Source: Defluviitaleaceae bacterium (lineage in GTDB: Bacteria; Bacillota; Clostridia; Lachnospirales; WQUN01). Taken from it: a stretch of DNA of 64,000 bases. Of this stretch, positions 3,198 to 58,983 are shown in pieces. Position 1 is the stretch's first letter; every line of letters starts with the position of its first letter. A program made the translations under genes and the position numbers. Location: assembly GCA_009780315.1 (NCBI GenBank), contig WRAH01000009.1, forward strand, positions 13,516 through 77,515, written 5' to 3'. Below the pieces are notes generated by a model. The model did no database searches, was not told where the DNA came from, and saw nothing but the letters and a program-made list of their open reading frames with translations.

Positions 3198-3386
3198 ATG
3201 AACAATAACGGACTTAAACAATCAGAACTAAACTGGATTCGCGAAGTTGTTTCTGCGCACAACATGTCTTCAAGCAAACTGAATGCCTATGCAGAGCAAG
3301 TGCAAGACCCACAAATCAAGCAAATGTTCGCCAAGGCTTCTACACAAGCAAAGCAAGCAGCACAAAATCTACTACAAATGCTATAA
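3198..3386 (+). CDS. Small helical spore-coat (CotF-like) protein
   Basis: An in-frame ATG at 3198 is preceded by AAAGGAGC. The product is MNNNGLKQSELNWIREVVSAHNMSSSKLNAYAEQVQDPQIKQMF.... It is paired with the CotF-family gene 14 nt downstream. Confidence 0.55.
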   Translation: MNNNGLKQSELNWIREVVSAHNMSSSKLNAYAEQVQDPQIKQMFAKASTQAKQAAQNLLQML

Positions 3387-3399
3387 GGAGGTTTTAACT

Positions 3400-3651
3400 A
3401 TGATGCAAGAAAAAGATATTGTTTTAGATGTACTTGGCGGCGTTAAAGCCAGCCTTACAGGTTATGCCACATTCATTAGCGAAACCGCTAACCCAAATCT
3501 TCGCCAAACCTTTCAACAAATGCGTGATGGTGATGAAAAGTTCCAATATGACCTATACAAAATAGCCGCGCAAAAAGGCTACTACGCAACATCACCCAAT
3601 GCAACACCACAAGATATGAGCAGTGTAAAATCATCCCTTACTTCATTCTAA
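3400..3651 (+). CDS. Spore coat protein, CotF family
   Basis: ATG 3400 follows AAGGAGG. The block MMQEKDIVLDVLGGVKASLTGYATFISETANPNLRQTFQQMRDGD matches the Coat_F pattern (D.L...K.....Y......E..NP.LR). Confidence 0.7.
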   Translation: MMQEKDIVLDVLGGVKASLTGYATFISETANPNLRQTFQQMRDGDEKFQYDLYKIAAQKGYYATSPNATPQDMSSVKSSLTSF

Positions 3652-13101: not shown

Positions 13102-13157
13102 CCATAGTCATTTTTTCTCTTTTAACGAATAATAGTTAATCCTCATGACAAATTTAA

Positions 13158-13189
13158 AAGCCACAATTTCTATATAGAAATTGTGGCTT
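13158..13189. terminator. Terminator hairpin shared by the convergent hydrolase gene and ppdK
   Basis: Perfect hairpin aagccacaatttc-tata-tagaaattgtggctt. The T-rich flank is on the minus-strand side. Confidence 0.7.
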
Positions 13190-13222
13190 AATTATTACAA
13201 AAAGTACGCTCTAGCCTAAAAA

Positions 13223-20000: not shown

Positions 20001-22872
20001 CATAATTGATACTAAACACAGCAGGGGTGAATGTCCAATAGCCTGTAAACTCAACATGATTATTTGGCATAATAAATGGTGAGCTTATGATGGTTGTATG
20101 ATTCCAACCGCTAAATACCCATCCGCCTTCTACACCCAAGGCATTTATTGTTGATGTGGTTGTAGGATTTGGCGCAATCAGCATACCTATTGTGCCGGCG
20201 GCAAATGGTGTTGATGCTGACGGCATGTTGGCAACTACAGGCGGTTCAATGCCTGTGACTGTGTAGGTCACGTTAAATTGTGCTGGGATAAATGTCCAAT
20301 AGCCTGTAAAGGCTACATGATTATTGGGCATGGTAAATGGTGATGTAGTGATGGTTGCATGACTCCATCCACTAAATGTCCATGTGCCTTGGGTACCTGC
20401 GGCATTGGTGGTGGATGTGGTGGTTGGTTCTGGGGCTATGGTTAAGCCTGTTGTACCTGCGTCTACTGGTGTTGACCCAGTTGGCATGTTGGCAACCACA
20501 GGAGGTTCAACTCCTGTAACTGTATAAGTCACGTTAAATTGTGCTGGAGTAAATGTCCAATATCCTGTAAAGGCTACATGATTATTGGGCATGGTAAATG
20601 GTGATGTGGTGATGGTTGCATGATTCCATCCACTAAATGTCCATGTGCCTTGGGTACCTGCGGCATTGGTGGTGGATGTGGTGGTTGGTTCTGGGGCTAT
20701 GGTTAAACCTGTTGTACCTGCGTCTACTGGTGTTGACCCAGTTGGCATGTTGGTAACCACAGGAGGTTCAGCACCTGTAACTGTATAAGTCACGCTAAAT
20801 TGTGCTGGGGTAAATGTCCAATATCCTGTAAAATGCACAGCATTATTGGGCATAGAAAATGGTGATGTGGTGATGGTTGGATGATTCCAGCCGTTAAATG
20901 TCCATGTGCCTTGGACACCTGCGGCATTGGTGGTAGATGGAGTGGTTGGTATTGGTGCAATATCTACACTTGTGGTAGGCATTACATATGTTGTTGGCGG
21001 CATACCGTTGACTACATCAGGTGTAATGCCTGTAACTGTATAAGTTACATCAAGTGGAAGTGCCGGCGAACTAGTTGTAACATTAAATGTGCTAACCGCT
21101 GAATCTAAGTGGTTAACATTATTTGCCCTATGGTACATTTCAACTGTATAAGTTGTACCATCTGTTAAGCCTGTAAAATTAAGACTGATATCCCAGTCTC
21201 TAACGACTGCACCAGTAGCGGAGTTGATTAGACGGTATTGTGTTGTCCAGCCTGTACCGGGCGAACCTGTCCAAGCATTTAATGGCGTTGGTGCATTTGC
21301 AGCTGTAATAGTAAACATATTTTCGCCTACTACATTTTCTGCTGCACCAGAAGGCGCATTTGTCTCCCTTGCTATAATAGTAACTGTAATATCTGGTATT
21401 GATATGCCAACTGCCGGCGGAGCTGGTGTACCTGCACTTGATATAACAGTACCTTGACGCGTAGCAGGAATATTCAAGGTCACAGTATGTGTCCCGACAC
21501 CAAGATTTCTTGAATTTGGAGTAATATTAAAATTTCTTTGGGGAACAGCATTATTCAAAGCCGTACCAGGTGGATTAATTGAACCAATATTAAAGCCAGC
21601 AAAAGGGCCAGTAATAGTAGGGTTACTAAAACTTATTGATGATGCAGAAACGCCATTCTCTCTTGTTAAAGTTACAGATGCTGATGGGATACTTTGTCCC
21701 CATACACGTGTACCAAAATCAACATGAGATATATTAGCACTTAAAGTCGGTGGAATTGCTGACGCAACTGAAAAAGTCAAATCTCCCAAATTTCTTGTGG
21801 GGTGTCCAGGTGTAATGAGGTTATTTGTAATCGTTTGTCCGATAAAATGATGATTTGCTGGAAAACCTGGTGTTATTGTTGTCGTGTATCCAGTTCGAAC
21901 CCCTAATATAGGGGGGATGGCTGGAGGGTAAAATCTTTGTTGGGAAGTACCCACTAAAAAACCAGTTACATCCGACAAACTTATGCCTCCTGGATTAACT
22001 AATGTTGCGCCTACAGGAGTACTCCTTGCAACATGCGAACCTGGATAATTTAAAAATTGGTTCATAGCCAGCTCAGTTGCTCCACCCAAACTTCCTGTAT
22101 AACCAAAATTTGGAAAAATATAAGTTTCAATAACTATGGTTTCTGTGCGTGTCGGCCATATATAATGTCTGCCAGTACCCGTTGACATTGAAGAAAATTG
22201 CGGTGTAAACCCCATGAAAATTCTAACACTAAAATCATGTACAAAATCATCACTTGCTGTTGCACCATTTGCAATGGTTGCACGTACGATGACAGTACCC
22301 ATATCAAAAGCATGGAGTTCATTGTCTACAAGCACTGCGCCAGTCGCGCCAGGGTCTGAAATGCTCCAAGTAATGCTTTGGTTTGTGGCGTTGCTTGGGT
22401 ATACATCACCAGTTAAGTACAATGGAATGCCTATATTTGTTTCCGTTGGCAGGTTGTGCAGTGTTGCCACAGGAACAAAGTCTAGGGCTGGCAATTGGGG
22501 TAGTACAGGCGCAATGTCAACCAGATTATCTTTGCATCCGCAATGATTGTCTTCGTCACACTCGCATTCTGCACATTCACAGTCAGTTTCTTCTTCTCCT
22601 TCAATGTCTTCTTCTGTTTCAGATTCTTCCGTTTCGGCTTCCTCTGTTTCATCCTCTGTTTCTTCGTCAATGTCAGTTTCTTCATCTTCTTCTACATCAT
22701 TATCATCCGTATAGTCATCATAAATGCTGCTTGATACATAATCGCTTTCATCATATTCCGGCGGCAAAGCGTCTACGGGCAATGCGGCAAAAACCAGAAT
22801 AAACACAAGCAAAATGCACATTACCTTTTGAATGAACATCCGCCCTTGATAATTTAATATGCTGTTTAACAT
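17071..22872 (-). CDS. Giant wall-anchored repeat adhesin: signal peptide, acidic Cys-containing tract, Big_2-like domain, 7 + 6 Listeria/Bacteroides-type (Flg_new-like) repeats, C-terminal sorting signal
   Basis: Track ORF 17071..22917 (TTG start). ATG 22872 or ATG 22839 (MFIQKVMCILLVFILVFAALPVDA) are likelier starts. The repeat signature is GTWTFSGW...FTMPNN.V.FTGYWTF. The C-terminus reads LMPQTG, then a hydrophobic stretch, then RKIKR. Confidence 0.9.
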   Translation of the reverse strand: MLNSILNYQGRMFIQKVMCILLVFILVFAALPVDALPPEYDESDYVSSSIYDDYTDDNDVEEDEETDIDEETEDETEEAETEESETEEDIEGEEETDCECAECECDEDNHCGCKDNLVDIAPVLPQLPALDFVPVATLHNLPTETNIGIPLYLTGDVYPSNATNQSITWSISDPGATGAVLVDNELHAFDMGTVIVRATIANGATASDDFVHDFSVRIFMGFTPQFSSMSTGTGRHYIWPTRTETIVIETYIFPNFGYTGSLGGATELAMNQFLNYPGSHVARSTPVGATLVNPGGISLSDVTGFLVGTSQQRFYPPAIPPILGVRTGYTTTITPGFPANHHFIGQTITNNLITPGHPTRNLGDLTFSVASAIPPTLSANISHVDFGTRVWGQSIPSASVTLTRENGVSASSISFSNPTITGPFAGFNIGSINPPGTALNNAVPQRNFNITPNSRNLGVGTHTVTLNIPATRQGTVISSAGTPAPPAVGISIPDITVTIIARETNAPSGAAENVVGENMFTITAANAPTPLNAWTGSPGTGWTTQYRLINSATGAVVRDWDISLNFTGLTDGTTYTVEMYHRANNVNHLDSAVSTFNVTTSSPALPLDVTYTVTGITPDVVNGMPPTTYVMPTTSVDIAPIPTTPSTTNAAGVQGTWTFNGWNHPTITTSPFSMPNNAVHFTGYWTFTPAQFSVTYTVTGAEPPVVTNMPTGSTPVDAGTTGLTIAPEPTTTSTTNAAGTQGTWTFSGWNHATITTSPFTMPNNHVAFTGYWTFTPAQFNVTYTVTGVEPPVVANMPTGSTPVDAGTTGLTIAPEPTTTSTTNAAGTQGTWTFSGWSHATITTSPFTMPNNHVAFTGYWTFIPAQFNVTYTVTGIEPPVVANMPSASTPFAAGTIGMLIAPNPTTTSTINALGVEGGWVFSGWNHTTIISSPFIMPNNHVEFTGYWTFTPAVFSINYEVIGVRPAIENNMPPAATPTTAGTAGLTIAPYPTTTSLTNAAGVMGTWTFDGWNHPTITTSPFTMPNSNVTFTGTWTFTPAQFNVTYTVTGIEPSVVANMPAASTSVAAGTTGVVIAPSPTTTSTTNGAGVQGAWTFSGWFNATVSSSPFTMPNNNVAFTGYWTFTPDTFDVTYTVTGVEPAVVTGMPPALTTLNAGTTGVVIAASPITTSNTNTVGVQGTWTFSGWSNATITSSPFIMPNHDVAFTGYWIFTPDTFNLTINNLPNAIGIPSGQTPSGIMNAGDTITLVQGTNPINFVFMGWVRGATLPALGSDLSSFAGTIYLTRTFTMPNESLTYTAIWGDGTYVGLPTNDNLTINNLPNNIGPHVGQTATGSVVVSTDITLAEGTAPADFVFMGWVRGATLPALGSDLSSFAGTVYYPTRTFTMPNEAITYTAIWGDGTYVGVPINDNLTIDNLPNNIGPHVGQTATGSVAVGVDVILAEGTAPTNFVFMGWVRGATLPALGSDLSSFAGTVYYPTRHFIMPNEDLTYTAIWGDGTFVGVPTDYNLIINNLPNTIDPHVNQTKSEGVIVGTHVNLEEGIHPVDFIFMGWVRGDVLPALGSDINDFTGTVYPTRSFTMPNEVITYTALWGNGVIVGKPLNYNLFINNLPDNIGPHVDQTESGATVLGSTVTLDEGIAPEGFMFMGWVRGSDLPAIGTNINDFTAVPVRGVGHSFTMPNDAVVYTALWGNGTHVGVPLSFNLTVGNFPPSFVPVGQTPTGITLVEAGTALIWNEGTVATYDFLGWATDTSVLVVGSVLPPSAVVTPSVAMPSNDTNYFAVWGNSSTGIIGEPNIPPNVTPPTSPPILGGGGGNLDGGFRPTIPTRPEPPTPSVVGNEVVNNDDGMWVEFDDTGIPQGAWEWNEDEETWIFDEDNVPLAAAMPSSVPVPVAAVMSLMPQTGITSTIPLLLAGLLAALILAGFAVTYIRKIKRSDIA
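17515..19233 (-). repeat. Six in-frame tandem coding repeats of about 291 bp (97 aa)
   Basis: The units begin (F/D/Y)NL(T/I/F)INNLPNNIGPHVGQT and end TFTMPNE..TYTAIWGDGTYVG. The measured period is 291 bp (acataagtg at 18671 and at 18962). Confidence 0.9.
19234..21054 (-). repeat. Seven in-frame tandem coding repeats of 261 bp (87 aa)
   Basis: tgctgg recurs at 20281, 20542 and 20803, exactly 261 bp apart. The two units starting at 20281 and 20542 are near-identical at the DNA level. Confidence 0.92.
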
Positions 22873-23206
22873 ACAGAGAATACCCCCTAGGTTTAATTTT
22901 TTATTTTTCTCTTGCAAATCTTAAAATCCTATAAATCTTGGTTAAGGGCCCTCATGAACCAAAAATAAAATAGGCTATGTATAGAAGACCACAGGGGTCA
23001 CGAATACGTTACATACGTTTTTTAAAAAATTTATAAAAAATTTTATCATGCCCTAAAAAACGACACCAAATGTCCCGTTGCGGGCAATCATACAAAAACT
23101 TTATTTGAAGGTGAATAATATGGCATAAGTATATACACTTCAAATAAAAAGGGAAATGACCAATATGTAGCAATTTAATTTTTCCTTGTCTAAAAACAAG
23201 GCGAAA

Positions 23207-48458: not shown

Positions 48459-48490
48459 CTTCCGCTTTGGGAAGTGTTTTTTTATTTTTC
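48459..48490 (+). terminator. Second plus-strand hairpin plus long T-run (back-up terminator)
   Basis: cttcc-gctttg-ggaag followed by tgtttttttattttt. It overlaps the stop codon of the convergent ECF gene. Confidence 0.4.
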
Positions 48491-50878
48491 CTCGACTAAT
48501 CCATATTTGATTTTGATTCTGTCGAGTTTTTCCAACATTGGGCGGGATATGATGAGTAGAAAAAAGACTGTCGCCACAGCGTGAATGATATCAAATGGAA
48601 AACCCATGATGTATGACATCAAAAACATTTCTATTGTAGGGTTGGGTTGCCACATGAGTACACTGGCAGGGTTCATGATACCGCCATAGATTATCAAAGT
48701 GGCTAAACCACCAAAAATGGCAAGAGGAATAGGGCTGGATTGCAGTAATTTTTTGTGAAATAATATCCCTGCAAGGAAGCCTATCATACCAAAGGCAAAC
48801 ATTTGCCAAGGTGTCCACGGGCCTTGACCAAAAAACATATTACTTACAAACGCAGTCACCGCACCCACTAAAAATCCTGATTCCCCGCCAAAGGCCACCC
48901 CTGCAATGATGACAATAGCAATCACAGGCTTAAATTGGGGCAACATAAAAAATGCAGACCTGCCTGCAACAGCCAATGCACAAAGTACTGCAATGACTAC
49001 AATTTCACGGGCTTGGGGCTTTCGGCTTTCAAAAATCATCATAAAGGGAATCATGGTTTGCAAGATAATGAGCATGGAAATAAAGTAAAATCTACGGTCG
49101 TCAAAAAAATATATGCCTGCATAAATGGTGATGGGGATAGACAGCAAAATTAAAGCGGCTGCCAGCATGGTACGTTTTGGCAACGGAGGTTTGGGTGGAT
49201 TGCTGGGGGGGATATATTGGGTTTCATTGTTTACATATGGTTTTGCAGGAGTATCATCAGGGGGATTAGATTTCGTGGTTGTTGTCAGTTTCCCTCCCAG
49301 GGCAGTGATGATATCTTGGGGGGTTACGGCTTCGGGCAAGACTTGACGCGCCATACGATTAGCCCCTGTGGTATAAAAGCTATTTCCGCTAAAAAATGCC
49401 TTGGGGGTGTTTTCAGCCACAATATCACCGTCAAAAAATAATGCACAACGGGTTGCATATTCTGCACAAAATTCTATGTCATGGCTTACCATAATAATTG
49501 CCGTGCCGTCTTGTGCCAACTTTTGCAGGATACCTGCAAATATTGCCTTGTATTCTGCGTCCAACCCTTTGGTTGGCTCGTCCAGCAACAGGATTTTGGG
49601 CTGGAGCAATAATACTTTTGCCAGTGCCGCCCGTTGTTGCTCTCCCCCTGACAGGTCATACGGGTGACTGTCCAGTAAGTTTTCTAAGCGGCATAACTTT
49701 ATCATTTGGGTAAATGCTGCTTCTTTTTTTGCAGGCAATACTTCCTGCAAGTCTTCCCGCAAAGTTTTTGCTACAAATAATGTTTGGGGGTTTTGGGGCA
49801 AAGCATAAACAGGCTCATGGGTATGTATTTTTCCACGGTATGGTGAATAAAGCCCTAATATGAGGGACAGGGTTGTGGTTTTGCCTGTGCCGTTTCCGCC
49901 TAAAATGGCTGTAATTTCACCATAGTTGGCTTGAAAGTTTAGCCCTTTCACCACATCAGGGAGGTTCTTTTCATATTTGAACCATAGGTCTTTTACCGTC
50001 ACAGCCCTTTTGCCTGTAGTCATTGGAGGGGGTGCGGTGGATGTTTGAATGATTTTTTGGGTGTTAAGCCAGTCTGCGCCCTCTCGTACCGTGATTGGGC
50101 ATTGGTCTTTTCCATCACAAGCCGCCCATACACGCATGGGGGTTGGCATGGCTAGAAACATGCTGTGGGCTTTGGTACGCAAGATTGTACCTATTTCAGC
50201 AGGTGTGCCATGGGCTATCATTTGCCCTTTTTCCATTACGATGACTCTGGTAGAAAGGGAAAGCACTTCCTCCAGCCGATGTTCTGTTAAAATAACCGTT
50301 GTGCCTAGTTCGCGGTTTATTTTGCCTATCATCCCTAGAAACTCCCCTGCGGCAATAGGGTCTAACTGGCTGGTTGGCTCGTCTAAAATAAGCACAGAGG
50401 GTTGCAATGCCATAATAGACGCAAGGGCTAAAATTTGCTTTTGTCCACCAGACAATTCTGTTACAGATTTGTGAAACCAAGATTGTATGCCAAAAAAACT
50501 GGCTGTTTCTGCAACACGCAAGCGGATTTCTGGGGTTTTCATGCCTAGGCTTTCCAGCCCAAAAGCAAGCTCATGCCAGACCTTGTCCGTCACTATTTGA
50601 TTTTCCGGGGATTGAAATACGAAACCAATTTTTGCAGCCCCATCCCTTGGGGATAATTCCTCCAGAGGGGTATTTTCAAAAAATATTCTGCCTGTTTTCA
50701 CCCCATGGGGTGTAGCCGATGGCTTGATATGCCTCAGTAAAGTTGTTTTTCCACAGCCTGACGACCCGCAAACCGTTATAAACTCCCCGCTTTTTATGGT
50801 CAAATTGACATTCAGCAAGGCAGGGTGTGGGCGGGTTGGATATGAAAATGTTAGGTTCTCGATTTTATACGTTTCCAT
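48482..50878 (-). CDS. ECF transporter fusion protein: ATPase (EcfA-like) + ATPase (EcfA'-like) + C-terminal S-component-like membrane domain
   Basis: ATG 50878 follows AGAGGA. There are two complete ABC cassettes (GSSGCGKTT / LSGGQKQILAL / LILDEPTSQLD and GGNGTGKTT / LSGGEQQRAAL / LLLDEPTKGLD). A P/T/N-rich linker follows, and then about 6 TM helices. Confidence 0.88.
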   Translation of the reverse strand: METYKIENLTFSYPTRPHPALLNVNLTIKSGEFITVCGSSGCGKTTLLRHIKPSATPHGVKTGRIFFENTPLEELSPRDGAAKIGFVFQSPENQIVTDKVWHELAFGLESLGMKTPEIRLRVAETASFFGIQSWFHKSVTELSGGQKQILALASIMALQPSVLILDEPTSQLDPIAAGEFLGMIGKINRELGTTVILTEHRLEEVLSLSTRVIVMEKGQMIAHGTPAEIGTILRTKAHSMFLAMPTPMRVWAACDGKDQCPITVREGADWLNTQKIIQTSTAPPPMTTGKRAVTVKDLWFKYEKNLPDVVKGLNFQANYGEITAILGGNGTGKTTTLSLILGLYSPYRGKIHTHEPVYALPQNPQTLFVAKTLREDLQEVLPAKKEAAFTQMIKLCRLENLLDSHPYDLSGGEQQRAALAKVLLLQPKILLLDEPTKGLDAEYKAIFAGILQKLAQDGTAIIMVSHDIEFCAEYATRCALFFDGDIVAENTPKAFFSGNSFYTTGANRMARQVLPEAVTPQDIITALGGKLTTTTKSNPPDDTPAKPYVNNETQYIPPSNPPKPPLPKRTMLAAALILLSIPITIYAGIYFFDDRRFYFISMLIILQTMIPFMMIFESRKPQAREIVVIAVLCALAVAGRSAFFMLPQFKPVIAIVIIAGVAFGGESGFLVGAVTAFVSNMFFGQGPWTPWQMFAFGMIGFLAGILFHKKLLQSSPIPLAIFGGLATLIIYGGIMNPASVLMWQPNPTIEMFLMSYIMGFPFDIIHAVATVFFLLIISRPMLEKLDRIKIKYGLVEEK

Positions 50879-51744
50879 ATTAAATCCTCTTTTACATTGA
50901 CGATTAAGGGAAATGCGCAAAGCATAAAATGGACAATAAATAACACAACCATTAGCCCTTCATGGGTGTAAAAATGCCTAATGGTGGGAAAATATCTAAA
51001 GCGGTACACCTCAAAAACCCCACCTGTGATGATTGCAATAAGGCAAATTAAAATATAAATCAGCCCATATATATCACGGCTGGTGAAGCGGAAAATGGAA
51101 AATGCTGTGCGCTTGGGTAAACCATACCCCCGCCCTTTCATACTGTCTGCTGTCTCAATGGCGTTTTCCAGTGACCATGTAACCATGATGGATAAAATGC
51201 GCATACCATGCCGCGCCCGCTGAAAGACATTTCCCCTGGAAACATCCCGCCCAATGCATTTTTGTGCATTTGCCACAATTTTAATTTGGGCGCGAAACCG
51301 AGGAACAGCCCGCAACGACATGGAAAGTATCAACGAAAGGGCGGGAACTACCCGCCCAAGCAAATAAATCAATTTATCACTGGTCATGACTGCATTAAAG
51401 CATGAAAACCACACAATAACGGTGACAATCACCACTGCTGCCGCAATACCAAACATGGTTGACTCAAGAGTAAGTGGGTTTCCATTGGGCAAATGGGCTA
51501 AAATCGTACTGCCTTGGTGGTTAAAAAGCGGGTTCATGCCTGCGGCAACAATCATCATTGGCAACATAAAAATACCCATCCGTAAGGCTTTTTTTCCATA
51601 TAAATACAAGGCATAGACCATTGCACACAGCATAGAAATGCCTAAATTCACAGGATGCATGAAAAACATAGCCAGTCCAATAACTGCCGCAAAATAAAGT
51701 ATATTCACCAGAGGATGAAAGCTTGAAAATACGTCACATTCCAT
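50851..51744 (-). CDS. ecfT: ECF transporter transmembrane (T) component, CbiQ family
   Basis: 297-aa polytopic protein with the coupling-helix region ARHGMRILSIMVTWSLENAIETADSMKGRGY. It overlaps the ATPase gene start. Confidence 0.85.
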   Translation of the reverse strand: MECDVFSSFHPLVNILYFAAVIGLAMFFMHPVNLGISMLCAMVYALYLYGKKALRMGIFMLPMMIVAAGMNPLFNHQGSTILAHLPNGNPLTLESTMFGIAAAVVIVTVIVWFSCFNAVMTSDKLIYLLGRVVPALSLILSMSLRAVPRFRAQIKIVANAQKCIGRDVSRGNVFQRARHGMRILSIMVTWSLENAIETADSMKGRGYGLPKRTAFSIFRFTSRDIYGLIYILICLIAIITGGVFEVYRFRYFPTIRHFYTHEGLMVVLFIVHFMLCAFPLIVNVKEDLIWKRIKSRT

Positions 51745-51747
51745 GGT

Positions 51748-52557
51748 TTATTCTACCTGTTCTGCGCCTATATCACGTCCAAGGTCTACGGTATAAAGCC
51801 ACTCTACAATATCCCCTTCGCTTAAAAGATATTGAGACGACCCAAAATTGGGAAACCAGCCATTCACCCGATATTTCCAGCCAGAAAGAGGGCCTACATC
51901 ATATTCATACAAATTATTGATGGCTTCTATATACGCTGTATTAAAAGCAGGCGTAAACCGTGCCGCCATGTGTATACCTTCCTGTCTCGTTTCCCGCTGT
52001 AATATATCAAATACACTTTCCCCTTCCCAAGCCAATACTTGCCTTGGGTGCAAAATCCAGCCGTCTTCTGGTACAAGTTCGTGTTTGTCTCTGTGCAATA
52101 AATGCATATTATCCAAAATCGTATGGGCGCGCACAGATAAAGTCACGTAAAATGAACCATCATCTACAACAACATAGGCTGGCTCAACCTCAACAGGGAT
52201 GATTATTTCGGGCGTTTCTTCAAAAGTTTCTTCATCTTCAATTATTTCAAGGCTGGCTATATATTCGTATTCGTTTTGTGAGGGTTCATCCTGTAGAGTG
52301 TCATCCTGTGTTTCCGCTTCGGCAACGAGGGTTTCTACTTCTAATGGTAGAAACTCCGTAATCCCTTCGGAATGATATAAGTCGGGAATTGTGACGGGGG
52401 TTGCCATTGTTTCAAGGGGAGAGGATTCTGCCAGTTCTGGTGCTGGTGCATTTGTACTATGCACCCCACCCCAAAACCATGCAGTCACCAGCAAGGCAAC
52501 AATGACAACACCGCCTACAATTTTAGGCACAATATTAGTTTTCATAAGCTTCTTCAA
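51748..52557 (-). CDS. Membrane-anchored DUF4430-domain protein (transcobalamin beta-domain-like)
   Basis: N-terminal TM anchor, an acidic linker, and a C-terminal DUF4430 signature LSGWKYRVNGWFPNFGSSQYLLSEGDIVEWLYT. Confidence 0.8.
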   Translation of the reverse strand: MKKLMKTNIVPKIVGGVVIVALLVTAWFWGGVHSTNAPAPELAESSPLETMATPVTIPDLYHSEGITEFLPLEVETLVAEAETQDDTLQDEPSQNEYEYIASLEIIEDEETFEETPEIIIPVEVEPAYVVVDDGSFYVTLSVRAHTILDNMHLLHRDKHELVPEDGWILHPRQVLAWEGESVFDILQRETRQEGIHMAARFTPAFNTAYIEAINNLYEYDVGPLSGWKYRVNGWFPNFGSSQYLLSEGDIVEWLYTVDLGRDIGAEQVE

Positions 52558-53521
52558 ACATATCGCTCATGTCATATAGCCATGTCATGCCATTGACAAG
52601 TCGCCAGTATGCAACCAGTGCATAAGCCCCTTGTTCTGTTGACATAGGGTCTATCATGTCATCTGAATTTGAGCGTCTAAACCCGCCGCTTTCTTCATCA
52701 AACCATTGTAATAGCCATTGTACATAAACCAAAGCTTCTTCTGCAAAGTCTTCCCCAAGGGCAGTGAGTGCCACAATCATTTGGGCAGTGCTTTCAGGGT
52801 CAGAAAAAGTTTGCCTGCGAAGCCAGTCAAGGGCAAGGTCAACTGCCATGCGCACTTCTGCGTTATCGTCATAATACTGCGCCAATGCTTGAACAACCAT
52901 GGACGTTGTGTCTATTTCCAGCCGACCGAAAGCCCATGTACCTGTTGGATTTTGAGATGCTAAAATCCAGTCTATAAAGTCCATGCTATCCCTTTCATGC
53001 GGTATTGCGTTTAGTGCAATCAGTGCGAAAGCGTCTGCGTTTATGGTCATGTTCAAGGCATGGCGTTCATCCACTGAAACAAATGTACTGTACACTGCCG
53101 TCAAATCCCGCCCGTTAAAGTCGGCCGCATTAAATCCAACAGAACCCAGTGCCAGTGCCAGCCGTTGAAAATCCGTCCAACGGCGCATTCCGCTTGGGAA
53201 AGTTCCCGCAGATGGCGGATGTTGGATGTTATGCCCTTCCCTAGTTAGCCTATCCACTTCCAAAAGCATACGTTCCACATCCGTAAGCCAACCTTGTACC
53301 CAAGCATCATCAGCAGTCACCCGCCCTGCACGTGCAAGGGCAAGTACAGCCCATTCCCCGCCGACAGAGCCGACAAGGGGATGGGGTGTCACTGAGTCAT
53401 AAATCCAGTCAAGGGAACGATACATTGCCGTTTCCCAATCGGGTATAGTATCTTCTGCTTGAACAGCTACAGGAACAATGAGCATGGTCAAAATCAATAA
53501 AAACGCTGTAAATTTACCCAT
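52535..53521 (-). CDS. Secreted alpha/alpha-barrel protein (prenyltransferase / squalene-oxidase repeat; transcobalamin alpha-domain-like)
   Basis: Signal peptide ...VAVQA-ED. Repeated helical-hairpin motifs (GGEWAVLALARAG, SQNPTGTWAF, DTTSMVVQALAQ, AQMIVALTALG, MSTEQGAYALVAYWR). Confidence 0.8.
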   Translation of the reverse strand: MGKFTAFLLILTMLIVPVAVQAEDTIPDWETAMYRSLDWIYDSVTPHPLVGSVGGEWAVLALARAGRVTADDAWVQGWLTDVERMLLEVDRLTREGHNIQHPPSAGTFPSGMRRWTDFQRLALALGSVGFNAADFNGRDLTAVYSTFVSVDERHALNMTINADAFALIALNAIPHERDSMDFIDWILASQNPTGTWAFGRLEIDTTSMVVQALAQYYDDNAEVRMAVDLALDWLRRQTFSDPESTAQMIVALTALGEDFAEEALVYVQWLLQWFDEESGGFRRSNSDDMIDPMSTEQGAYALVAYWRLVNGMTWLYDMSDMFEEAYEN

Positions 53522-53550
53522 GAATACCTCCTAATAATTTGTCTAACCTA

Positions 53551-56500
53551 TTATACCAGACTTTCCAGTGTTTCTTCTACCTTTGCACGGGTAATTCCAT
53601 TGTCTACATGCTGAATTTCGACAAAATCAAACCCGCCAAACTGTGCAAAGTTATTTAAAAGTATGGCAAAATGTTCGCTTGTCATATAAAGGTCTGGGCC
53701 AAAAGTGCCGTCACCAAAGCCATTGACAATACCATGATGTCTTGCCCATGCAATGGCTTGATAGTGAACATGTGATGTTTGTACATCTGTAAAAGCAGCA
53801 GGGGTACTAACGATTGGCGAGCCTTCAAATGCCCAAAGGATTGCAACAATCATTGCCCGTGTCATGATTTCATATGCATACAATGTTTCTTCTAACACAT
53901 CATTAGGATGTTCAACCGCTTCAATTTCGTCAGCGTCTTCACCAATATAGTCCACAAAGAATAATGAAAAATGCGTGGTTGAGAAAGTCATAAATCCCCT
54001 GTGATACAGTGAATCTTCCATGACGCTAATATTGCCGTCATCATCAAGATGGAACACTTTAAGCAAGTGATGATTAGAAAAACCTATCGGCAGTGTATAG
54101 GGTATGGTAATGGTAATAGTCCCTTCAAAATAGCGGATATATTCACCATCAATCATGATTGAAAGTGCGATAATAACATTATCACCCACAATTTCTCTTT
54201 GGACTGGGCTTAGATTATGATAGGCTACCATTTCTACAATAAGTCTTACTGTTGTATCATCATTTAATCCATATGCCAATCCTGCCAAAGTATCCACATC
54301 TAAGACGATAACCGAAATATAAGATTGAAGGGTTAATATCATTTCATTTGCTATAAGGGCATTGATTGATTCCATAATTAAATTTATCTCAATACTGACG
54401 GCTTCCTCTGTGTGGGTTACATGGATAATAATATTTTCTGCGGCTTCTGTTAAAGCTTCTGCAATGACTGAATCAATCAATGCAGGACTGACTTCCACCA
54501 CAGCTATGCCATCCACAACATCCGCTTCAATTTCTACATTGACGGAAGGTACATTCGGCACAGGCATAACAACAGGAGGTACAGGGACTAAAGGTGTTGC
54601 GTCAGACCCAGTCACATCACCACCGCCAATATCATCACCAAGTTCACGGGTATATAACCACGCTACAGTATCCCCATCGCGCACGGGGATAGATATTGCA
54701 CCTGCCTGTGGAAATGCACCGTTGATACTCACCATCCAACCAGACCCAGGGCCATGGTCAAATTCCGAAAGTCCTTCAATACGATATACATATCCGCCGC
54801 TACTGCCTATATTCAGTCCTGTTCTGTGAAGGAAACTATAAGCGGTTTCATTTGCATTGAGCGTAAGCGTATCATGAAAGAACGTGCGGTTTCCATGGGG
54901 GTCACGTACACTAATGGTTGCCGTACCAAGGGTTGGAGGGGTTTCACCACCCCCGCCACCGCCCCCACCGCCAGAAAGGTTTGGGGTGCTAACAGAAGGC
55001 AGGAGTTGGAGGGTTCTTGCCATACTTGCATCGTTCATACTATATAGTGTATCCATGCCATTGATAAAACGGTAGTACGCCACAAGGGCATAAGCGCCTT
55101 GTTCTGTAGACATTTGGTTAACAACACCACCGCCTGTCATGCCTTCCCAATACCATTCGGCACTTCTAAAGCCACCTGTTGCAGTGTCAAAATACCCCAG
55201 CAATCCAATGACATATGCAGACGGATTGTGTCCAGCTCCAGTGAGGGCAACAATCATTTGGGCATAATTTTCTGGGCCTGATAAAAATTGACCAGGTGTT
55301 ATCCAGCTGACTGCATTATTCACTGCTGTATTCACGGCACTATGACTGCGGAAAGGGGCAAGTGCTTGAATTGCCATTGACGTATGGTCAAAATCCCCCC
55401 AATCAGCACTCCATGGTGAAGGCCAAGAACCATCGGGTAATTGCTCTGCCAAAATTGCATCAATATATTGCTGTGTATTGATACTATAATTGCCAGCGTT
55501 TATGGCAAGCAATGCAAAAATATCCCCATTCAGCGGATTGTCCCCTGGACGGTTTGCAAATGCCGCCGTTAAGTCATGTCCTGAAAAATTTGATGCGTCT
55601 ATCCCCAAGGACGTTAGCGCAAGTGTAATACGCGCAAAATCTGTCAATGAAGTGCTGGATGCAAGGGGAAGCGCAGATGTTAGATTGGATATATACATGT
55701 CATACCATATATCATCATCAATACCTGCCCTAGCCAGTGATAGTACAGCCCATTCGCTAGAAATTCCAGGGTTAGGCGTATCTAACCGTAACCAACGCAA
55801 TGCATCATACATCATGGTTTGCCAGCGGGGTGCAGATGCTAATGGTATCAACCCATTGATTGATGCTGTCAGCCTTATGCGAACAGGGTCAACCACTGCT
55901 TGTGTTGCGTCTAAGGGTAATGAAAGTGCTTCATTGAGTGAGGTTTGCATTTCTGCCCAACTTGTAGGCGTGTAATTTGTCCTATTCCTTTGTTGCGCTT
56001 CTGCAATGGCTTCATTCAGTGCAACCCTAAAAGGCGGCAAAATAGATACAAGCCCATCTTTTGCAGCCAGCAACACTGCCAGTGCATTGTCAACATCAAT
56101 TTGTGTAGCACTTGCATTGATTACAACACTTTCAGCACTTGTTAATGCTGTCATAAACACGACCCAACTTGCTGGGGTGTATAGTGCAAATGAAAGAAGT
56201 CTCCCTTCAGTAATGGCCGCTTGTAGTGTTGAAAATCTGACTACAGTTAAATCAGGCTGCCATACCCATGTTTCACCTGCAACATCTGCATTAGGTACAG
56301 CAATAAGTCCCGCAGATGTAAATACACGATTTCCTTGAGGGTTTCCAATAGTGCCAGTCCCTACATTTGCCCAATACCCAGTATAGTATGGGTGACTGGG
56401 AATGGCAGGGAGATTAGCATTGATTTTAAACTCAAAATCAGTACCAAGTGTGATTTCACGCAAGGCAGTGGTATCTTGGAACGCATTTGCCATGGTTGGT

Positions 56501-58596
56501 TGCAATACGTTTGCAATAAAAACAGTGGAGGATGTGTTCCAACCTGATAAATTTACACGTTCTAAGCGGTTTGCATTTTGGAAGATAGCATTCATATTGG
56601 TTGCGCGGCGTATATCCCAACCTGATAAATCTAAACTTTGCAGACTTCTTGCGTCTGTAAACATATTGTTCATCAGAAGATTGGCAGTGATATTTCCACC
56701 CACATCCCAGCCTGACAAGTTCAATGATTCTAACGCCCATGTGTTAGCAAATGTACTTGCAAAGTTGGTGACACGGCTTACATCCCAGCTTGATAAATCT
56801 AAGCTTGTTAAGCTTCGGGCATTGCCAAATGTCATGCTCATGGTGGTTACATTACGTGTATCCCATTGGGCTATATTTAAGTCTGACAATGCCCATGTAT
56901 TGGAAAACGTACTGCTTAAATTGGTGACATTGCTTACATTCCAACCAGACAAATTTAAACTAGTCAAACTTTGGGCATTTGAAAAAGTTAAAGACAATGT
57001 ATTCACACTGCTTGTATCCCAATTGGCAATATCAAGACTGGTTAAGCTGTGTGCGCCAGAAAACATTGACCCTAAAGTTGTAACATTGCTTGTATTCCAA
57101 TGGCTCATACCTTGAATACTTACCAAGTTTGGATTTGTCGCAAACATATTTGCCATGGTCGTTACATTGGAAGTGTTCAGATATTGTAAACCCTCTATGG
57201 TTCTAACATTTGACAAACTACTAAACAAATGTTGGACAGAGTTGGACGAACCAACGGTAAGGGGGGCTTCAACAATAACACTGGTAATATTCATGCGGTG
57301 TGCGTGCCATGGAATGCTTGCATTTGCAGCAGTAGAACCTGCAACAATGCCACCGCCAATGACTAATCTGCCATCATTATATAACCGCCACGGTGCGCCG
57401 CCAGCAACTGAAAATGTGCCGGAATGAACAACACCTACAGAAATAAATCTGACATTAAACCTTTGCATGGCAATGTTGTTGCCAAACACAGTAACCGTTG
57501 CATTATATATTCCCACAGGAAGTCCGCTGTTGGGTGTTACAGTAAATAAATCATTCCCTCCTGCGGCAATGGCTGAAAGGGTTGATACATTTATTGTAAA
57601 AGCACTGGCATGTGTGCCAGAAAGTGCAATGGTAAGCCCACTTGTAGCCCTAGAACTTGTATTAGACACAGTAACATCAAGGGGGCTATCGGATGAAAAT
57701 ACATACAAATCAGTCACCGACAGCGCGATTTCTGCTGGTTCAGGTAAAACACCTGTTTCCAGTGCTGAAAGGGCGGCAAAGATTTCTCCAGTGGTTGCCA
57801 CAGGATTTATAATCACATCCAGTGCATGTTGGAATGCAGGCGCACTTACACCAGGTAAAAATAATGCACGAATCAAAGCATCTTTGCTTTCATGCACATA
57901 AATAGACGGCCCAAACCATGGGTCTACCGATAGCCCAAGACAAGTGCCTATGATTGAAAACATCCAACGCACAACATCTCCGTCACTTAATACCTCAACA
58001 CCTGCGCCAACATTACCAATGTTATGATTGACGGCAAACATCCAGCCTGACAAAAAGTTCATACCAAAATCATTTGACCCTATAGACCCATTTGGGTTAG
58101 GGTTAGGATTCCACATGGAAGCCATTGCATTTGCATTTATGCCATCCATGATAACCTGCGGTGGATTTGCAATGTCTGGAAATAACCCATGAATCCTAGT
58201 GATACCAGCAGCCCCGCCCTCATGTGTAAGACCATGTGCCGCCAGCACTTGCATTGTGGGCACCATTGCATTTGAACCTATAGGCACACGCACTTGTGTA
58301 GGTTCTACATAAAATCCATGACCTAAAGTAAAACCTTCAATGCTGACATAAACCGTAATATATTCCGTTGCCAGTGGAGCAACAATAACTTCTACCGCAG
58401 GGGGGCTTGCTATTTCAATGTCAACATCTACATTAAAATCATTATCGTTATTTTCATACTCCACTTCATATACATCTGCAAACAAAGATGTATTCGGCAA
58501 AAGACCAAATGCCATAACGAACGCAACAAGCAATGCAAGTATCCGCGTTTTTTTATTTTTGTTTATCAAAACAAACATCCTTTCTTTCATTGACAT
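53551..58596 (-). CDS. 1681-aa SLH-anchored surface protein. Domain order: signal peptide, DUF4430, Ig-like, about 10 BspA-type 26-residue LRRs, helical (FIVAR-like) modules, alpha/alpha barrel, poly-Gly linker, DUF4430, unknown domain, SLH
   Basis: Motifs in order: GWMFAVNHNIGNVGAGVEVLSDGDVVRWMFS; LTSLDLSSWDVSRVTNFASTF repeats; SSEWAVLSLARAG...MSTEQGAYALVAYYRF; GGGGGGGGG; SGWMVSINGAFPQAGAISIPVRDGDTVAWLYT; and a C-terminal FTDVQTSHVHYQAIAWARHHGIVNGFGDGTFGPD (SLH). Confidence 0.9.
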   Translation of the reverse strand: MSMKERMFVLINKNKKTRILALLVAFVMAFGLLPNTSLFADVYEVEYENNDNDFNVDVDIEIASPPAVEVIVAPLATEYITVYVSIEGFTLGHGFYVEPTQVRVPIGSNAMVPTMQVLAAHGLTHEGGAAGITRIHGLFPDIANPPQVIMDGINANAMASMWNPNPNPNGSIGSNDFGMNFLSGWMFAVNHNIGNVGAGVEVLSDGDVVRWMFSIIGTCLGLSVDPWFGPSIYVHESKDALIRALFLPGVSAPAFQHALDVIINPVATTGEIFAALSALETGVLPEPAEIALSVTDLYVFSSDSPLDVTVSNTSSRATSGLTIALSGTHASAFTINVSTLSAIAAGGNDLFTVTPNSGLPVGIYNATVTVFGNNIAMQRFNVRFISVGVVHSGTFSVAGGAPWRLYNDGRLVIGGGIVAGSTAANASIPWHAHRMNITSVIVEAPLTVGSSNSVQHLFSSLSNVRTIEGLQYLNTSNVTTMANMFATNPNLVSIQGMSHWNTSNVTTLGSMFSGAHSLTSLDIANWDTSSVNTLSLTFSNAQSLTSLNLSGWNVSNVTNLSSTFSNTWALSDLNIAQWDTRNVTTMSMTFGNARSLTSLDLSSWDVSRVTNFASTFANTWALESLNLSGWDVGGNITANLLMNNMFTDARSLQSLDLSGWDIRRATNMNAIFQNANRLERVNLSGWNTSSTVFIANVLQPTMANAFQDTTALREITLGTDFEFKINANLPAIPSHPYYTGYWANVGTGTIGNPQGNRVFTSAGLIAVPNADVAGETWVWQPDLTVVRFSTLQAAITEGRLLSFALYTPASWVVFMTALTSAESVVINASATQIDVDNALAVLLAAKDGLVSILPPFRVALNEAIAEAQQRNRTNYTPTSWAEMQTSLNEALSLPLDATQAVVDPVRIRLTASINGLIPLASAPRWQTMMYDALRWLRLDTPNPGISSEWAVLSLARAGIDDDIWYDMYISNLTSALPLASSTSLTDFARITLALTSLGIDASNFSGHDLTAAFANRPGDNPLNGDIFALLAINAGNYSINTQQYIDAILAEQLPDGSWPSPWSADWGDFDHTSMAIQALAPFRSHSAVNTAVNNAVSWITPGQFLSGPENYAQMIVALTGAGHNPSAYVIGLLGYFDTATGGFRSAEWYWEGMTGGGVVNQMSTEQGAYALVAYYRFINGMDTLYSMNDASMARTLQLLPSVSTPNLSGGGGGGGGGETPPTLGTATISVRDPHGNRTFFHDTLTLNANETAYSFLHRTGLNIGSSGGYVYRIEGLSEFDHGPGSGWMVSINGAFPQAGAISIPVRDGDTVAWLYTRELGDDIGGGDVTGSDATPLVPVPPVVMPVPNVPSVNVEIEADVVDGIAVVEVSPALIDSVIAEALTEAAENIIIHVTHTEEAVSIEINLIMESINALIANEMILTLQSYISVIVLDVDTLAGLAYGLNDDTTVRLIVEMVAYHNLSPVQREIVGDNVIIALSIMIDGEYIRYFEGTITITIPYTLPIGFSNHHLLKVFHLDDDGNISVMEDSLYHRGFMTFSTTHFSLFFVDYIGEDADEIEAVEHPNDVLEETLYAYEIMTRAMIVAILWAFEGSPIVSTPAAFTDVQTSHVHYQAIAWARHHGIVNGFGDGTFGPDLYMTSEHFAILLNNFAQFGGFDFVEIQHVDNGITRAKVEETLESLV
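56430..57180 (-). repeat. About 10 in-frame 75-78-bp coding repeats (BspA-type / DUF285-type 26-residue leucine-rich repeats)
   Basis: Recurring pattern ...W(D/N)(V/T)S.V(T)(N/T)...(M/T)F....L.SL(D/N)LS.W... Confidence 0.85.
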
Positions 58597-58701
58597 GGGG
58601 TTTTATCTCAAACCCCGCCGCTACTTTGATTTTTTTAGATTTTTTTACTATGCTATCCAATGCCAAGCACCCCTCCTTTTCATGAAAAATCCCTGAGAAT
58701 C

Positions 58702-58736
58702 AAAAAAACACGCTCCGTTTATGTAACGGAACGTGT
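58702..58736 (-). terminator. Riboswitch expression-platform terminator
   Basis: Minus strand reads ACACGTTCCGTT-ACAT-AAACGGAGCGTGT followed by TTTTTTT. Its 5' arm can alternatively pair with GAACGGAGCAATGTGT at the aptamer 3' end, which would form an antiterminator. Confidence 0.75.
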
Positions 58737-58779
58737 CCTAATAACAAGGTTAAAATACCCTTTTAAAATAAAACACATT

Positions 58780-58935
58780 GCTCCGTTCGGGGAAGCCATG
58801 TAGTGCCGCAACGTATCTGACTTATCAATAGCGGCAAATTGCCGCATCGCATCACAGTGACCCGCTCGCAGGGAATCTCACCCTATTCCGCTCCAAATAT
58901 TTATAAATACTAAAAATATCTTGGCAGCAGCACCA
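58780..58935 (-). promoter_or_regulatory. Probable cobalamin (B12) riboswitch, short or atypical variant
   Basis: The minus strand shows the conserved blocks in canonical order: GGTGAGATTCC (L4-type loop closed by AGGG/CCCT), GGTCACTGTGA, and a B12-box-like AAGTCAGATAC. In addition, 5' GGTGCTGC pairs with GCGGCACT just after the B12 box. A terminator lies downstream. No covariance-model search was run. Confidence 0.6.
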
Positions 58936-58954
58936 TCTATTATGTTGTAACTTT

Positions 58955-58983
58955 AGTTTACATCACCCTACAAAAATTTGCAA
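58955..58983 (-). promoter_or_regulatory. Sigma-A-type promoter of the riboswitch-led operon
   Basis: Minus strand reads TTGCAA (58983-58978), a 17-nt spacer, then TAAACT (58960-58955). It lies immediately after the stop of the upstream M23 gene. Confidence 0.5.

Follow-up and report, generated by a model that had tools for sequence, protein, structure and literature searches.

Bacteroides capture corrinoids at the cell surface with the high-affinity lipoproteins BtuG and BtuH, which are anchored in the outer membrane, and deliver their ligand to BtuB, a TonB-dependent transporter encoded behind B12 riboswitches. Relative to these proteins, the capture of B12 by Gram-positive gut anaerobes is poorly known. 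Here, a five-gene operon (g1 to g5) and the structured leader RNA that precedes it are described in a stretch of 64,000 nucleotides (nt) from a Defluviitaleaceae bacterium, a member of the gut Clostridia (GenBank assembly GCA_009780315.1, contig WRAH01000009.1, positions 13,516 to 77,515 of the forward strand), hereafter called the window. The operon probably encodes a system for the scavenging and import of corrinoids, the vitamin B12 family, which corrinoid would switch off through a divergent cobalamin-type riboswitch. Its role would be analogous to that of BtuG and BtuH, although the folds are unrelated and no homology is claimed.

The architecture of the putative binding proteins is that of the mammalian B12 carriers. 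Transcobalamin, intrinsic factor and haptocorrin combine an alpha/alpha barrel with a beta-grasp domain, a layout that g2 and g3 of the window split over two polypeptides; DUF4430 is the C-terminal domain of TCN proteins (PMC4350170). Among Gram-positives of low GC content, a transcobalamin-like SLBB clade is secreted and occurs in fusion with alpha/alpha toroids and with domains for surface binding (Burroughs et al., 2007; PMC1796856). According to the passages of that paper covered here, the SLBB genes adjoin CbiO/CbiQ-like genes, a second paralogue lies in the operon, the hosts lack B12 synthesis, scavenging of B12 or its precursors was predicted, and the animal proteins were suggested to have been acquired from such bacteria. 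Secreted DUF4430/SLBB proteins with alpha/alpha toroids, surface tethers including FIVAR, a second SLBB paralogue in the operon, a CbiO-like ATPase and CbiQ-like membrane genes are common to that system and to the window operon. The earlier study differs in being purely computational, and the same passages make no mention of a riboswitch link, of SLH or of a prenyltransferase-like domain.

An experimentally studied relative is the five-gene operon Lsa1836-1840 of Lactobacillus sakei, which was re-annotated and deleted; in the parts of the report covered, deletion impaired heme accumulation, complementation restored it, and capture by transcobalamin alpha-like and beta-like proteins followed by import through an energy-coupling factor (ECF) transporter was proposed for heme (Verplaetse et al., 2019; bioRxiv 864751). 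By the description in that paper, the operon resembles that of the window: it has an S-component, a fused A-A' ATPase and EcfT, plus two secreted proteins, one transcobalamin-beta-like and one transcobalamin-alpha-like. It differs in its assigned substrate, heme, its separate S gene and the lack of a giant surface protein, and the parts covered do not mention a riboswitch. Given these two studies, the claim of the original prediction that such a system had not been characterised in Gram-positives was overstated: the kind of operon was predicted in 2007, and the window operon is an elaborately built member of it.

For the transporter, the closest solved S-component belongs to ECF-CbrT of Lactobacillus delbrueckii (6FNP), which moves cobalamin and cobinamide with ATP (Santos et al., 2018; PMC5997447), and the EcfT of the same complexes is the best match of g4. 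However, CbrT is of group II, shares its ECF module with other S-components and works with no binder outside the cell, whereas the window encodes a dedicated module with S fused to A-A', and the similarity is low. For the leader, the nearest described RNA is the 'atypical' riboswitch of Bacillus subtilis yvrC (RF01482; Chan and Mondragon, 2020; PMC7367189), with which it shares a P2 module, a short P6 hairpin and a four-way P3-P6 junction; in both, an L5-L13 kissing loop is expected. In contrast to yvrC, the window leader has a G-rich L5 (GnnGG), a C-rich P13 loop and a junction that reads GCGAGnGGGUCACUGUGAUG, and it scores 18 bits against a cutoff of 50. A search of the published literature, with most subscription journals outside its reach, found no corrinoid-binding experiment on a bacterial transcobalamin-like protein, no statement tying the transcobalamin-like/ECF system to B12 riboswitches and no description of the variant riboswitch.

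The riboswitch variant is a new element of the system. The leader had been read as a probable cobalamin riboswitch; it is not recognisable to Rfam as RF00174 or as the AdoCbl variant, but it is a real, conserved variant of the cobalamin core with covarying helices and a score of 86 bits under a dedicated covariance model (R1). A search with nhmmer and the window leader retrieves the same element from nine homologous loci; in all but L070 of these, its place is upstream of whichever barrel or DUF4430 gene comes first. R1 was built from 11 genomic copies, including that of the window, and its structure consists of P3, P4 and the base of P6; P6 is represented by two base pairs only, and P1, P2 and P6 were read by hand. 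From raw MAFFT alignments, RNAalifold yielded no more than P3, P4 and one doubtful hairpin. The 11 copies score 65-89 bits under R1 and are followed, after a gap, by 32 weaker matches of 14-29 bits, all on the strand of the gene cluster. When 13 loci with weak matches were checked against Rfam, RF00174 was above its gathering score in nine, RF01482 reached 31-37 bits, below its cutoff of 50, in three (leaders L034:2034-2200 and 6921-7066, L059:953-1029 and L061:166-309), and one had no match. The weak matches are mostly canonical cobalamin riboswitches, with R1 cross-detecting members of RF00174. In these Clostridia, more than one kind of cobalamin riboswitch with a short P6 thus escapes the Rfam thresholds. 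Part of a refuting condition attached to the original prediction was the lack of a significant covariance-model hit; as far as Rfam is concerned there is no such hit, yet the idea would have been wrongly discarded on that ground.

The conserved sequence of the variant ties it to the cobalamin clan (Rfam CL00101, tested here as RF00174, RF01482 and RF01689). Its invariant core reads GGAAUrGGGUGAGAUUCCCyGCGAGnGGGUCACUGUGAUG, followed by a hairpin and then AUAAGUCAGAUAC. The motifs that mark the clan, namely GGUGnnAnUCC in P4/L4, ACUGU in J6/3 and the B12 box AGYCAG, are all present and invariant across copies, retained in the variant as GGUGAGAUUCC, ACUGU and AAGUCAG, respectively. The four-way P3-P6 junction with a conserved cobalamin core, by which membership of the clan is judged, is present as well. 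In the window, the elements follow in the order P1 (58934-58928 paired with 58809-58803), P2 hairpin, P3, P4, P5/L5, a short P6 hairpin, P3' and P1'; the P4 loop is UGAGAUU, and P5 carries the G-rich L5 GCGGG, after which come ACUGUGAUG, P6 and the B12-box-like AAGUCAGAUAC. The promoter proposed upstream of the leader exists as a site, albeit a weak one (Table 1), and each of the 11 genomic variant copies has a -35/-10 pair upstream, equivalently spaced.

A wider sample supports the helices. An exact-pattern scan of metagenomes finds the variant on at least 120 contigs, including human-gut and termite-gut samples. Covariation was assessed on 91 variant matches (74 distinct), in an alignment that was fitted to the model and somewhat favours it; there, the P3, P4 and P6 cells are paired in 94.7% of cases, compared with 81.9% in shuffles, and compensatory changes are seen at 8 of the 10 pairs. 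For covariation the variant matches score 0.43, shuffles 0.19 and slid controls no more than 0.08. Every variant copy has a G-rich L5 (GUCGG, GACGG, GCGGG, GAAGG or GUGGG), whereas the Rfam consensus is C-rich (CCCCCG in RF00174 and CcC in RF01482). A C-rich P13 loop stands opposite the G-rich L5 in 81 of 85 unique variant copies, and a strict kissing-loop motif template fits 33 of 87 copies, equal to the maximum of 2000 permutations (mean 20.9, SD 3.6), a result short of significance for covariation. Since CGGG of L5 and CCCG of the P13 loop are complementary in the window, a kissing loop is suggested, and an L5-L13 contact of inverted polarity may be a property of the whole variant.

The expression platform downstream of the aptamer has two mutually exclusive predicted states. 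In one, the 3' arm of P13 and the next bases (about 58787-58770) are paired to the terminator's 5' arm (about 58737-58725); the whole platform, terminator included, folds at -33.2 kcal/mol. Without ligand, the pairing of P13 with the terminator arm would form the antiterminator and let transcription proceed into g1-g5. Binding of ligand in the P3-P6 junction would dock the G-rich L5 on the C-rich P13 loop and keep P13 closed, so that the 15-bp terminator could form and stop transcription. The leader has the predicted structure of a classical transcriptional OFF design, for which a corrinoid is the probable ligand.

Table 1. Coordinates, strand and basis of the features of the leader and of the five-gene operon in the window.
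Feature	Position in window	Strand	Description and basis
Promoter-like site TTGCAA-N17-TAAACT	58955..58983	-	Read from sequence; 8 of 12 consensus positions; unlisted by the scanner
Variant cobalamin-type aptamer (putative)	58800..58935	-	Minimum-free-energy fold; alignment with homologous leaders; RF01482 18.3 bits
Aptamer core, P3 to P3'	58807..58895	-	R1 model 86.4 bits, E ~1e-24; window sequence is one of the 11 seeds
P13-like hairpin GCUUC-CCCGAAC-GGAGC	58780..58796	-	Fold; loop CCCG complements L5 CGGG
Predicted antiterminator	58722..58788	-	Fold of 58788-58722, -21.8 kcal/mol
Intrinsic terminator	58698..58739	-	15-bp stem (58739-58705), 5-nt loop, U7 tail
g1	53551..58596	-	Secreted modular surface protein, 1681 aa; Pfam and NCBIfam domains
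g1 N-terminal DUF4430 module, ~aa 61-230	57907..58416	-	Pfam; one of two DUF4430 stretches in g1
g1 PARCEL/DUF285 leucine-rich-type repeats, ~aa 444-700	56497..57267	-	PF03382 1.5e-41; TIGR02167 2.5e-45
g1 alpha/alpha barrel, ~aa 923-1200, then Gly8 linker	54997..55830	-	AlphaFold2; Foldseek
g1 C-terminal DUF4430 module, ~aa 1225-1320	54637..54924	-	PF14478; best stretch aa 1264-1316
g1 SLH domain, single, aa 1602-1641	53674..53793	-	PF00395 1.4e-8; one stretch
g2	52535..53521	-	Secreted stand-alone alpha/alpha barrel, 328 aa; N-terminus signal-peptide-like
g3	51748..52557	-	N-terminally membrane-anchored DUF4430 protein, 269 aa; PF14478 6e-13
g4	50851..51744	-	EcfT, 297 aa; phmmer against PDB matches EcfT chains 5d3m_D/6fnp, E=1.6e-9
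g5	48482..50920	-	EcfA-EcfA'-S fusion, 812 aa; two ABC_tran and ECF_trnsprt
g5 S domain, aa 637-791	48548-49012	-	PF12822 43 bits against 30.7

The genes behind the variant elsewhere, as read from their sequences, point to corrinoids. Locus L023 has one copy before a TIM-barrel gene, after which come cobT, cobU, cobS and cobC, and a second stands before a 2504-aa SLH protein with two DUF4430 domains; the copy of L070 precedes a protein of at least 1410 aa with Flg_new repeats and DUF4430. Metagenome copies lie before cbiD (+121 nt), the gene of a BtuF-like binding protein (+267 nt) and nrdJ, encoding a class II B12-dependent ribonucleotide reductase (+154 nt). Transcobalamin-like or ECF genes follow the variant in 29 of 104 assessable metagenome loci, and it also precedes a family of giant proteins (19 loci, 900-2333 aa), with a DUF4430 gene next in L113 and L163.

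Some of these neighbourhoods are unusual in their own right. The first gene of the riboswitch-controlled cobT-cobU-cobS-cobC operon of L023 (581-1351) encodes a xylose-isomerase-like TIM barrel (AP_endonuc_2). The nrdJ gene 154 nt behind the variant in L108 is unexpected for an OFF switch, because NrdJ needs B12. Genes for Ddl, a sigma factor, alcohol dehydrogenase, RecQ and hydrogenase are not counted as regulon members, being crude open reading frame (ORF) calls that mostly lie more than 380 nt downstream. In the metagenome loci L110, L112, L127, L131, L137, L149, L196, L080 and L180, promoter, aptamer and terminator are followed by no convincing same-strand ORF for several hundred nt, and L174/L087, L192/L090, L166/L185 and L089/L181 have the same layout. 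In L192, a convergent gene for an SLH-domain protein ends about 460 nt downstream, so that read-through would be antisense to it. The transcript there may be a riboswitch-controlled antisense or non-coding RNA.

An ORF check across the window confirms the operon that the original prediction described: five packed minus-strand ORFs that run in one direction (58596-48482) with short intergenic gaps or overlaps, all of them where that prediction had placed them. A promoter-like site, a leader with RNA structure and a strong terminator precede the first gene. The first gene encodes a protein with a signal-peptide-like N-terminus (hydrophobic segment aa 19-37) and, in order, an N-terminal DUF4430 module, PARCEL/DUF285 repeats, FIVAR-like units, an alpha/alpha barrel, a Gly8 linker, a second DUF4430 module and SLH. 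Modules homologous to the N-terminal DUF4430 segment occur in L002, L068 and L113 (tblastn), and the two FIVAR-like helical units match under the Pfam cutoff. A barrel and two DUF4430 modules had been claimed for g1; Pfam finds both of the latter, and AlphaFold2 models the former with a predicted local distance difference test score (pLDDT) above 90 across most of its length. For the model of residues 923-1320, the best PDB match by Foldseek is transcobalamin (4zrp_B; E 1.4e-4), aligned over more than 400 columns and both domains, and class II terpene cyclases rank after it, matching the barrel alone. A comparison of about residues 925-1320 with transcobalamin had been proposed as a check, and it came out with transcobalamin first. 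As modelled, the barrel-plus-beta architecture of g1 is transcobalamin-like at the fold level.

The SLH anchor described for g1 is putative, its basis being a single SLH repeat. SLH domains typically occur as three in tandem, and the giant protein of the relative L023 has three. The start region of g1 also deserves mention. A strong Shine-Dalgarno-like AAAGGAGGGG, followed by a TTG and a 7-codon ORF (MALDSIV*), lies at 58642-58680 between the terminator and g1. No evident ribosome-binding site precedes the annotated ATG of g1; a TTG slightly further into the gene, by a few codons (about 58569, before INKNKK...) is better spaced from AAAGGA.

The second and third genes appear to encode the same two folds as separate proteins. 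The g2 product is taken as a barrel because it is 39% identical to the g1 barrel, for which an AlphaFold model exists; by itself it has no Pfam match above threshold and only a faint one to Prenyltrans (E 0.036). Its homologues number more than 500, the majority with C-terminal SLH domains. In g3, a single transmembrane segment (aa 9-27) at the N-terminus is followed by a C-terminal DUF4430 domain. NCBI names the two products 'terpene cyclase/mutase family protein' and 'DUF4430 domain-containing protein', respectively, and phmmer searches of both against PDB were uninformative. An AlphaFold2 model of g3 residues 135-269, made from a 43-sequence alignment, has a pLDDT of 92.3. Its top 19 PDB matches by Foldseek (E 3e-6 to 6e-5) are all either beta domains from intrinsic factor, transcobalamin or haptocorrin, or 3u7z, a DUF4430 structure from Ruminococcus gnavus; compared with 5no0, the transcobalamin beta domain on its own, the model has a TM-score of 0.75, and the next fold, a ubiquitin-like one, follows at E 7e-3. 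As modelled, the g3 DUF4430 domain has the fold of the beta domain of these carriers. For both genes the original prediction agrees with what was found: its secreted stand-alone barrel has the signal-peptide-like N-terminus and the identity to g1, and its membrane-anchored DUF4430 protein has the transmembrane segment, the PF14478 domain and the transcobalamin-type beta fold.

The last two genes encode the transporter, g4 being EcfT and g5 an EcfA-EcfA'-S fusion, as had been proposed. No Pfam family matches g4, with CbiQ absent even at E<=5, and its assignment comes from the solved EcfT chains (Table 1). The start of g5 is more likely the ATG at 50878 than the TTG at 50920. Its ATPase part scores 317.6 bits with TIGR04520 (ECF_ATPase_1; cutoff 315), and two extra hydrophobic helices (aa 585-629; 49036-49168) join the second ATPase domain to the S domain. 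Being even in number, the added helices would keep the S domain in its normal topology. With two ATPase domains, EcfT and an in-frame S domain all present, the genes make up an ECF transporter with a dedicated module, of the group I type. Among solved structures the best relative of the S domain, and its sole strong match, is CbrT (6fnp_A; E=1e-9, 174 residues, 41.6 bits). Fusion of S to A-A' is found in 19 of 37 assessable homologous loci, and S is separate in the other 18.

Gene order and regulation are conserved well beyond the window. The barrel alignment, scanned against one genome per GTDB species, gave at least 581 confirmed stretches, of which 79 loci were analysed. They come almost all from Clostridia of termite, human and other guts, and among the carriers in culture are Anaerovorax odorimutans DSM 5092 (L072) and Paenibacillus sp. 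2TAB19 (L078). A barrel, a g3-like DUF4430 protein, EcfT and EcfAA'(S) occur together in 44 of the 79 loci, typically in that order. The genes upstream of this core vary, with 1-3 further barrel or DUF4430 proteins that are often giant and carry SLH, Big_2, Cadherin-like, Flg_new or dockerin modules. Of 29 loci scanned at the gathering threshold of RF00174, 14 have such a riboswitch before the homologous cluster (L008, L016, L078, L020, L030, L017, L021, L022, L063, L045, L038, L049, L053 and L070). When canonical, RF01482-like and variant elements are pooled, at least 42 of the 79 loci have one, a count that includes weak, unverified R1 matches. Conservation of the neighbourhood across Clostridia, which had been suggested as a check, is thus seen in both the core order and the canonical riboswitches upstream. 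In L063, three RF00174 elements (1261-1452, 2295-2483 and 3326-3514; 109-113 bits) are spaced at about 1030 nt and lie upstream of a DUF4430/ECF cluster, and a fourth, weaker one (12945-13190) lies before EcfT.

Taken with the leader, these genes suggest a path for the ligand. In each binder, a corrinoid would be sandwiched between an alpha/alpha barrel and a DUF4430 beta-grasp domain. The g1 protein would carry both domains on one wall-tethered chain, with an extra N-terminal DUF4430, and the secreted barrel of g2 and the membrane-anchored DUF4430 of g3 would form a split, membrane-proximal binder. EcfT and the A-A'-S fusion, with its CbrT-like S domain, would then use ATP to carry the corrinoid across the membrane. 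Binding and hand-off by g1-g3 are what we infer from fold and homology, and a three-step relay from the giant protein through the g2/g3 pair to the ECF transporter is pure inference.

Several observations weigh against a corrinoid system of this kind. No Rfam family reaches its gathering score at the window leader, where the best match is RF01482 (AdoCbl) with 18.3 bits against 50 (E 0.4-0.8), and four other variant copies have no cobalamin-clan match at E<=1. Because the clan models miss threshold, the identity of the ligand rests on context. Type-specific L5-L13 covariation is not significant (duplex-energy permutation fraction at or below observed, 0.11), and many metagenome copies precede genes with no obvious B12 link or no clear ORF. 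PF01122 (Cobalamin_bind) is not matched by g1, g2 or g1 residues 923-1320, even at E<=5. The DUF4430 part of the g1 model is weak (pLDDT 50-70), with a TM-score to transcobalamin of 0.34-0.46. A profile of 25 DUF4430 domains searched against PDB finds no transcobalamin chain, so that the link needs fold comparison; the relation of g1-g3 to transcobalamins, as modelled, is at the fold level only. FolT-family and riboflavin S-component models score the S domain about as CbrT does, the FolT-family NCBIfam model giving 39.3 bits (cutoff 60), and the S domain alone does not fix the substrate. Finally, the homologous operon of L. sakei is experimentally tied to heme uptake, according to the parts of that report covered (bioRxiv 864751).

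One alternative is that corrinoid is bound but not relayed: g1 would be a reservoir, a sequestering agent or an adhesin with B12 modules, and only g2/g3 or the S-component would feed the transporter. The first giant gene does vary from locus to locus (PARCEL, Flg_new, Big_2, Cadherin-like or GLUG; 900-2500 aa), with the barrel-DUF4430-EcfT-EcfAA'S core constant, ECF-CbrT functions with no accessory binder (PMC5997447), and surface B12 reservoirs are described in Bacteroidetes (BtuJ1 preprint). Yet g1 lies behind the same riboswitch and has the same two-domain binder as g2 and g3 together, and we consider an operon without a relay unlikely.

A different doubt concerns the leader, which might sense a particular cobamide, cobinamide or a non-corrinoid ligand rather than the usual cobalamins. 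All variant copies swap the C-rich L5 for GnnGG, L5 and junction are unlike those of all Rfam models, Rfam scores are null or 18 bits, and for part of the downstream genes no link to B12 is obvious. However, the junction nucleotides common to cobalamin riboswitches are kept, and the change in L5 is matched by the C-rich P13 loop, which fits a swap of kissing-loop polarity and not a changed pocket. In addition, the regulon holds cobTUSC, cbiD, a BtuF-like gene and nrdJ, and L034, L059 and L061 have intermediate RF01482-like elements (31-37 bits) at the corresponding place. An unusual ligand of the leader has a low probability on this evidence, and the usual cobalamins are preferred.

Another proposal is that the system imports heme or another non-corrin tetrapyrrole, with the transcobalamin-like proteins capturing heme as for Lsa1836-1840. 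Besides the deletion and complementation phenotypes of that operon, the distance of the window S domain from CbrT (41.6 bits) is consistent with it. The capture of heme by the transcobalamin-like proteins of L. sakei, as far as the covered parts of the paper go, rested on docking (bioRxiv 864751). Against heme stand the canonical or variant cobalamin riboswitches before at least 42 of the 79 clusters (partly weak, unverified R1 matches), the control of cobTUSC, cbiD and a BtuF-like gene by the same variant, and the finding of no heme-related gene or regulator in the window operon by domain scans and inspection of neighbour genes. Because of this tight link to cobalamin riboswitches, a corrinoid is favoured as the substrate, and import of heme by the window operon seems improbable. 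The B12 interpretation of the operon is well supported, and gene content, domain assignments and the corrinoid link uphold the original prediction.

The idea that g2 and the g1 barrel are terpene cyclases or prenyltransferases, in a cluster for isoprenoid or cell-envelope chemistry, draws on the NCBI name of g2, on Foldseek matches to drimenyl diphosphate synthases over the barrel (E ~4e-4), on faint Prenyltrans and SQHop_cyclase matches and on one QW-like motif, but it is rejected as highly implausible, since DxDD is absent from g1 and g2, the Pfam matches are far under cutoff (E ~0.03; 13.9-14 bits against about 26), the proteins are secreted or SLH-linked, and the barrels always occur with DUF4430 and an ECF importer under B12 riboswitches.

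The surroundings of the operon are unrelated to it, with M23 peptidases upstream and convergent sugar-type ABC permeases downstream. Elsewhere in the window, a second giant surface protein of 1948 aa (17071-22917, minus strand) has SHIRT domains and a faint FimH-like region and is unrelated to the B12 operon. The sole Rfam family above threshold in the window is the ribosomal protein L10 leader RF00557 (16842-16992, minus strand; 59.1 bits).

The most interesting outcome is the combination of a riboswitch variant that is invisible to Rfam with a riboswitch-based case for corrinoid handling by the ECF/transcobalamin-like family. Rfam annotation misses a whole branch of B12 riboswitches, comprising at least 120 metagenome contigs and 11 genomic copies, and B12 regulons in gut Clostridia are consequently under-called. 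With more reservation, and as a proposal that may well prove too bold, the variant could be a subclass of cobalamin riboswitches that has gone unrecognised and that Rfam 15 does not see, with inverted L5-L13 polarity and perhaps its own corrinoid selectivity, which would mainly control giant wall-tethered transcobalamin-like proteins in termite and human gut Clostridia; together with those proteins it would mark the proposed bacterial source of the animal B12 carriers, and it would redirect the 'heme' ECF family towards corrinoids. Compact constructs suited to binding studies are available in g2, g3 and residues 923-1320 of g1. The system is present in hundreds of Clostridia species, and it gives a way to test the proposed Gram-positive origin of the B12 carriers of animals.

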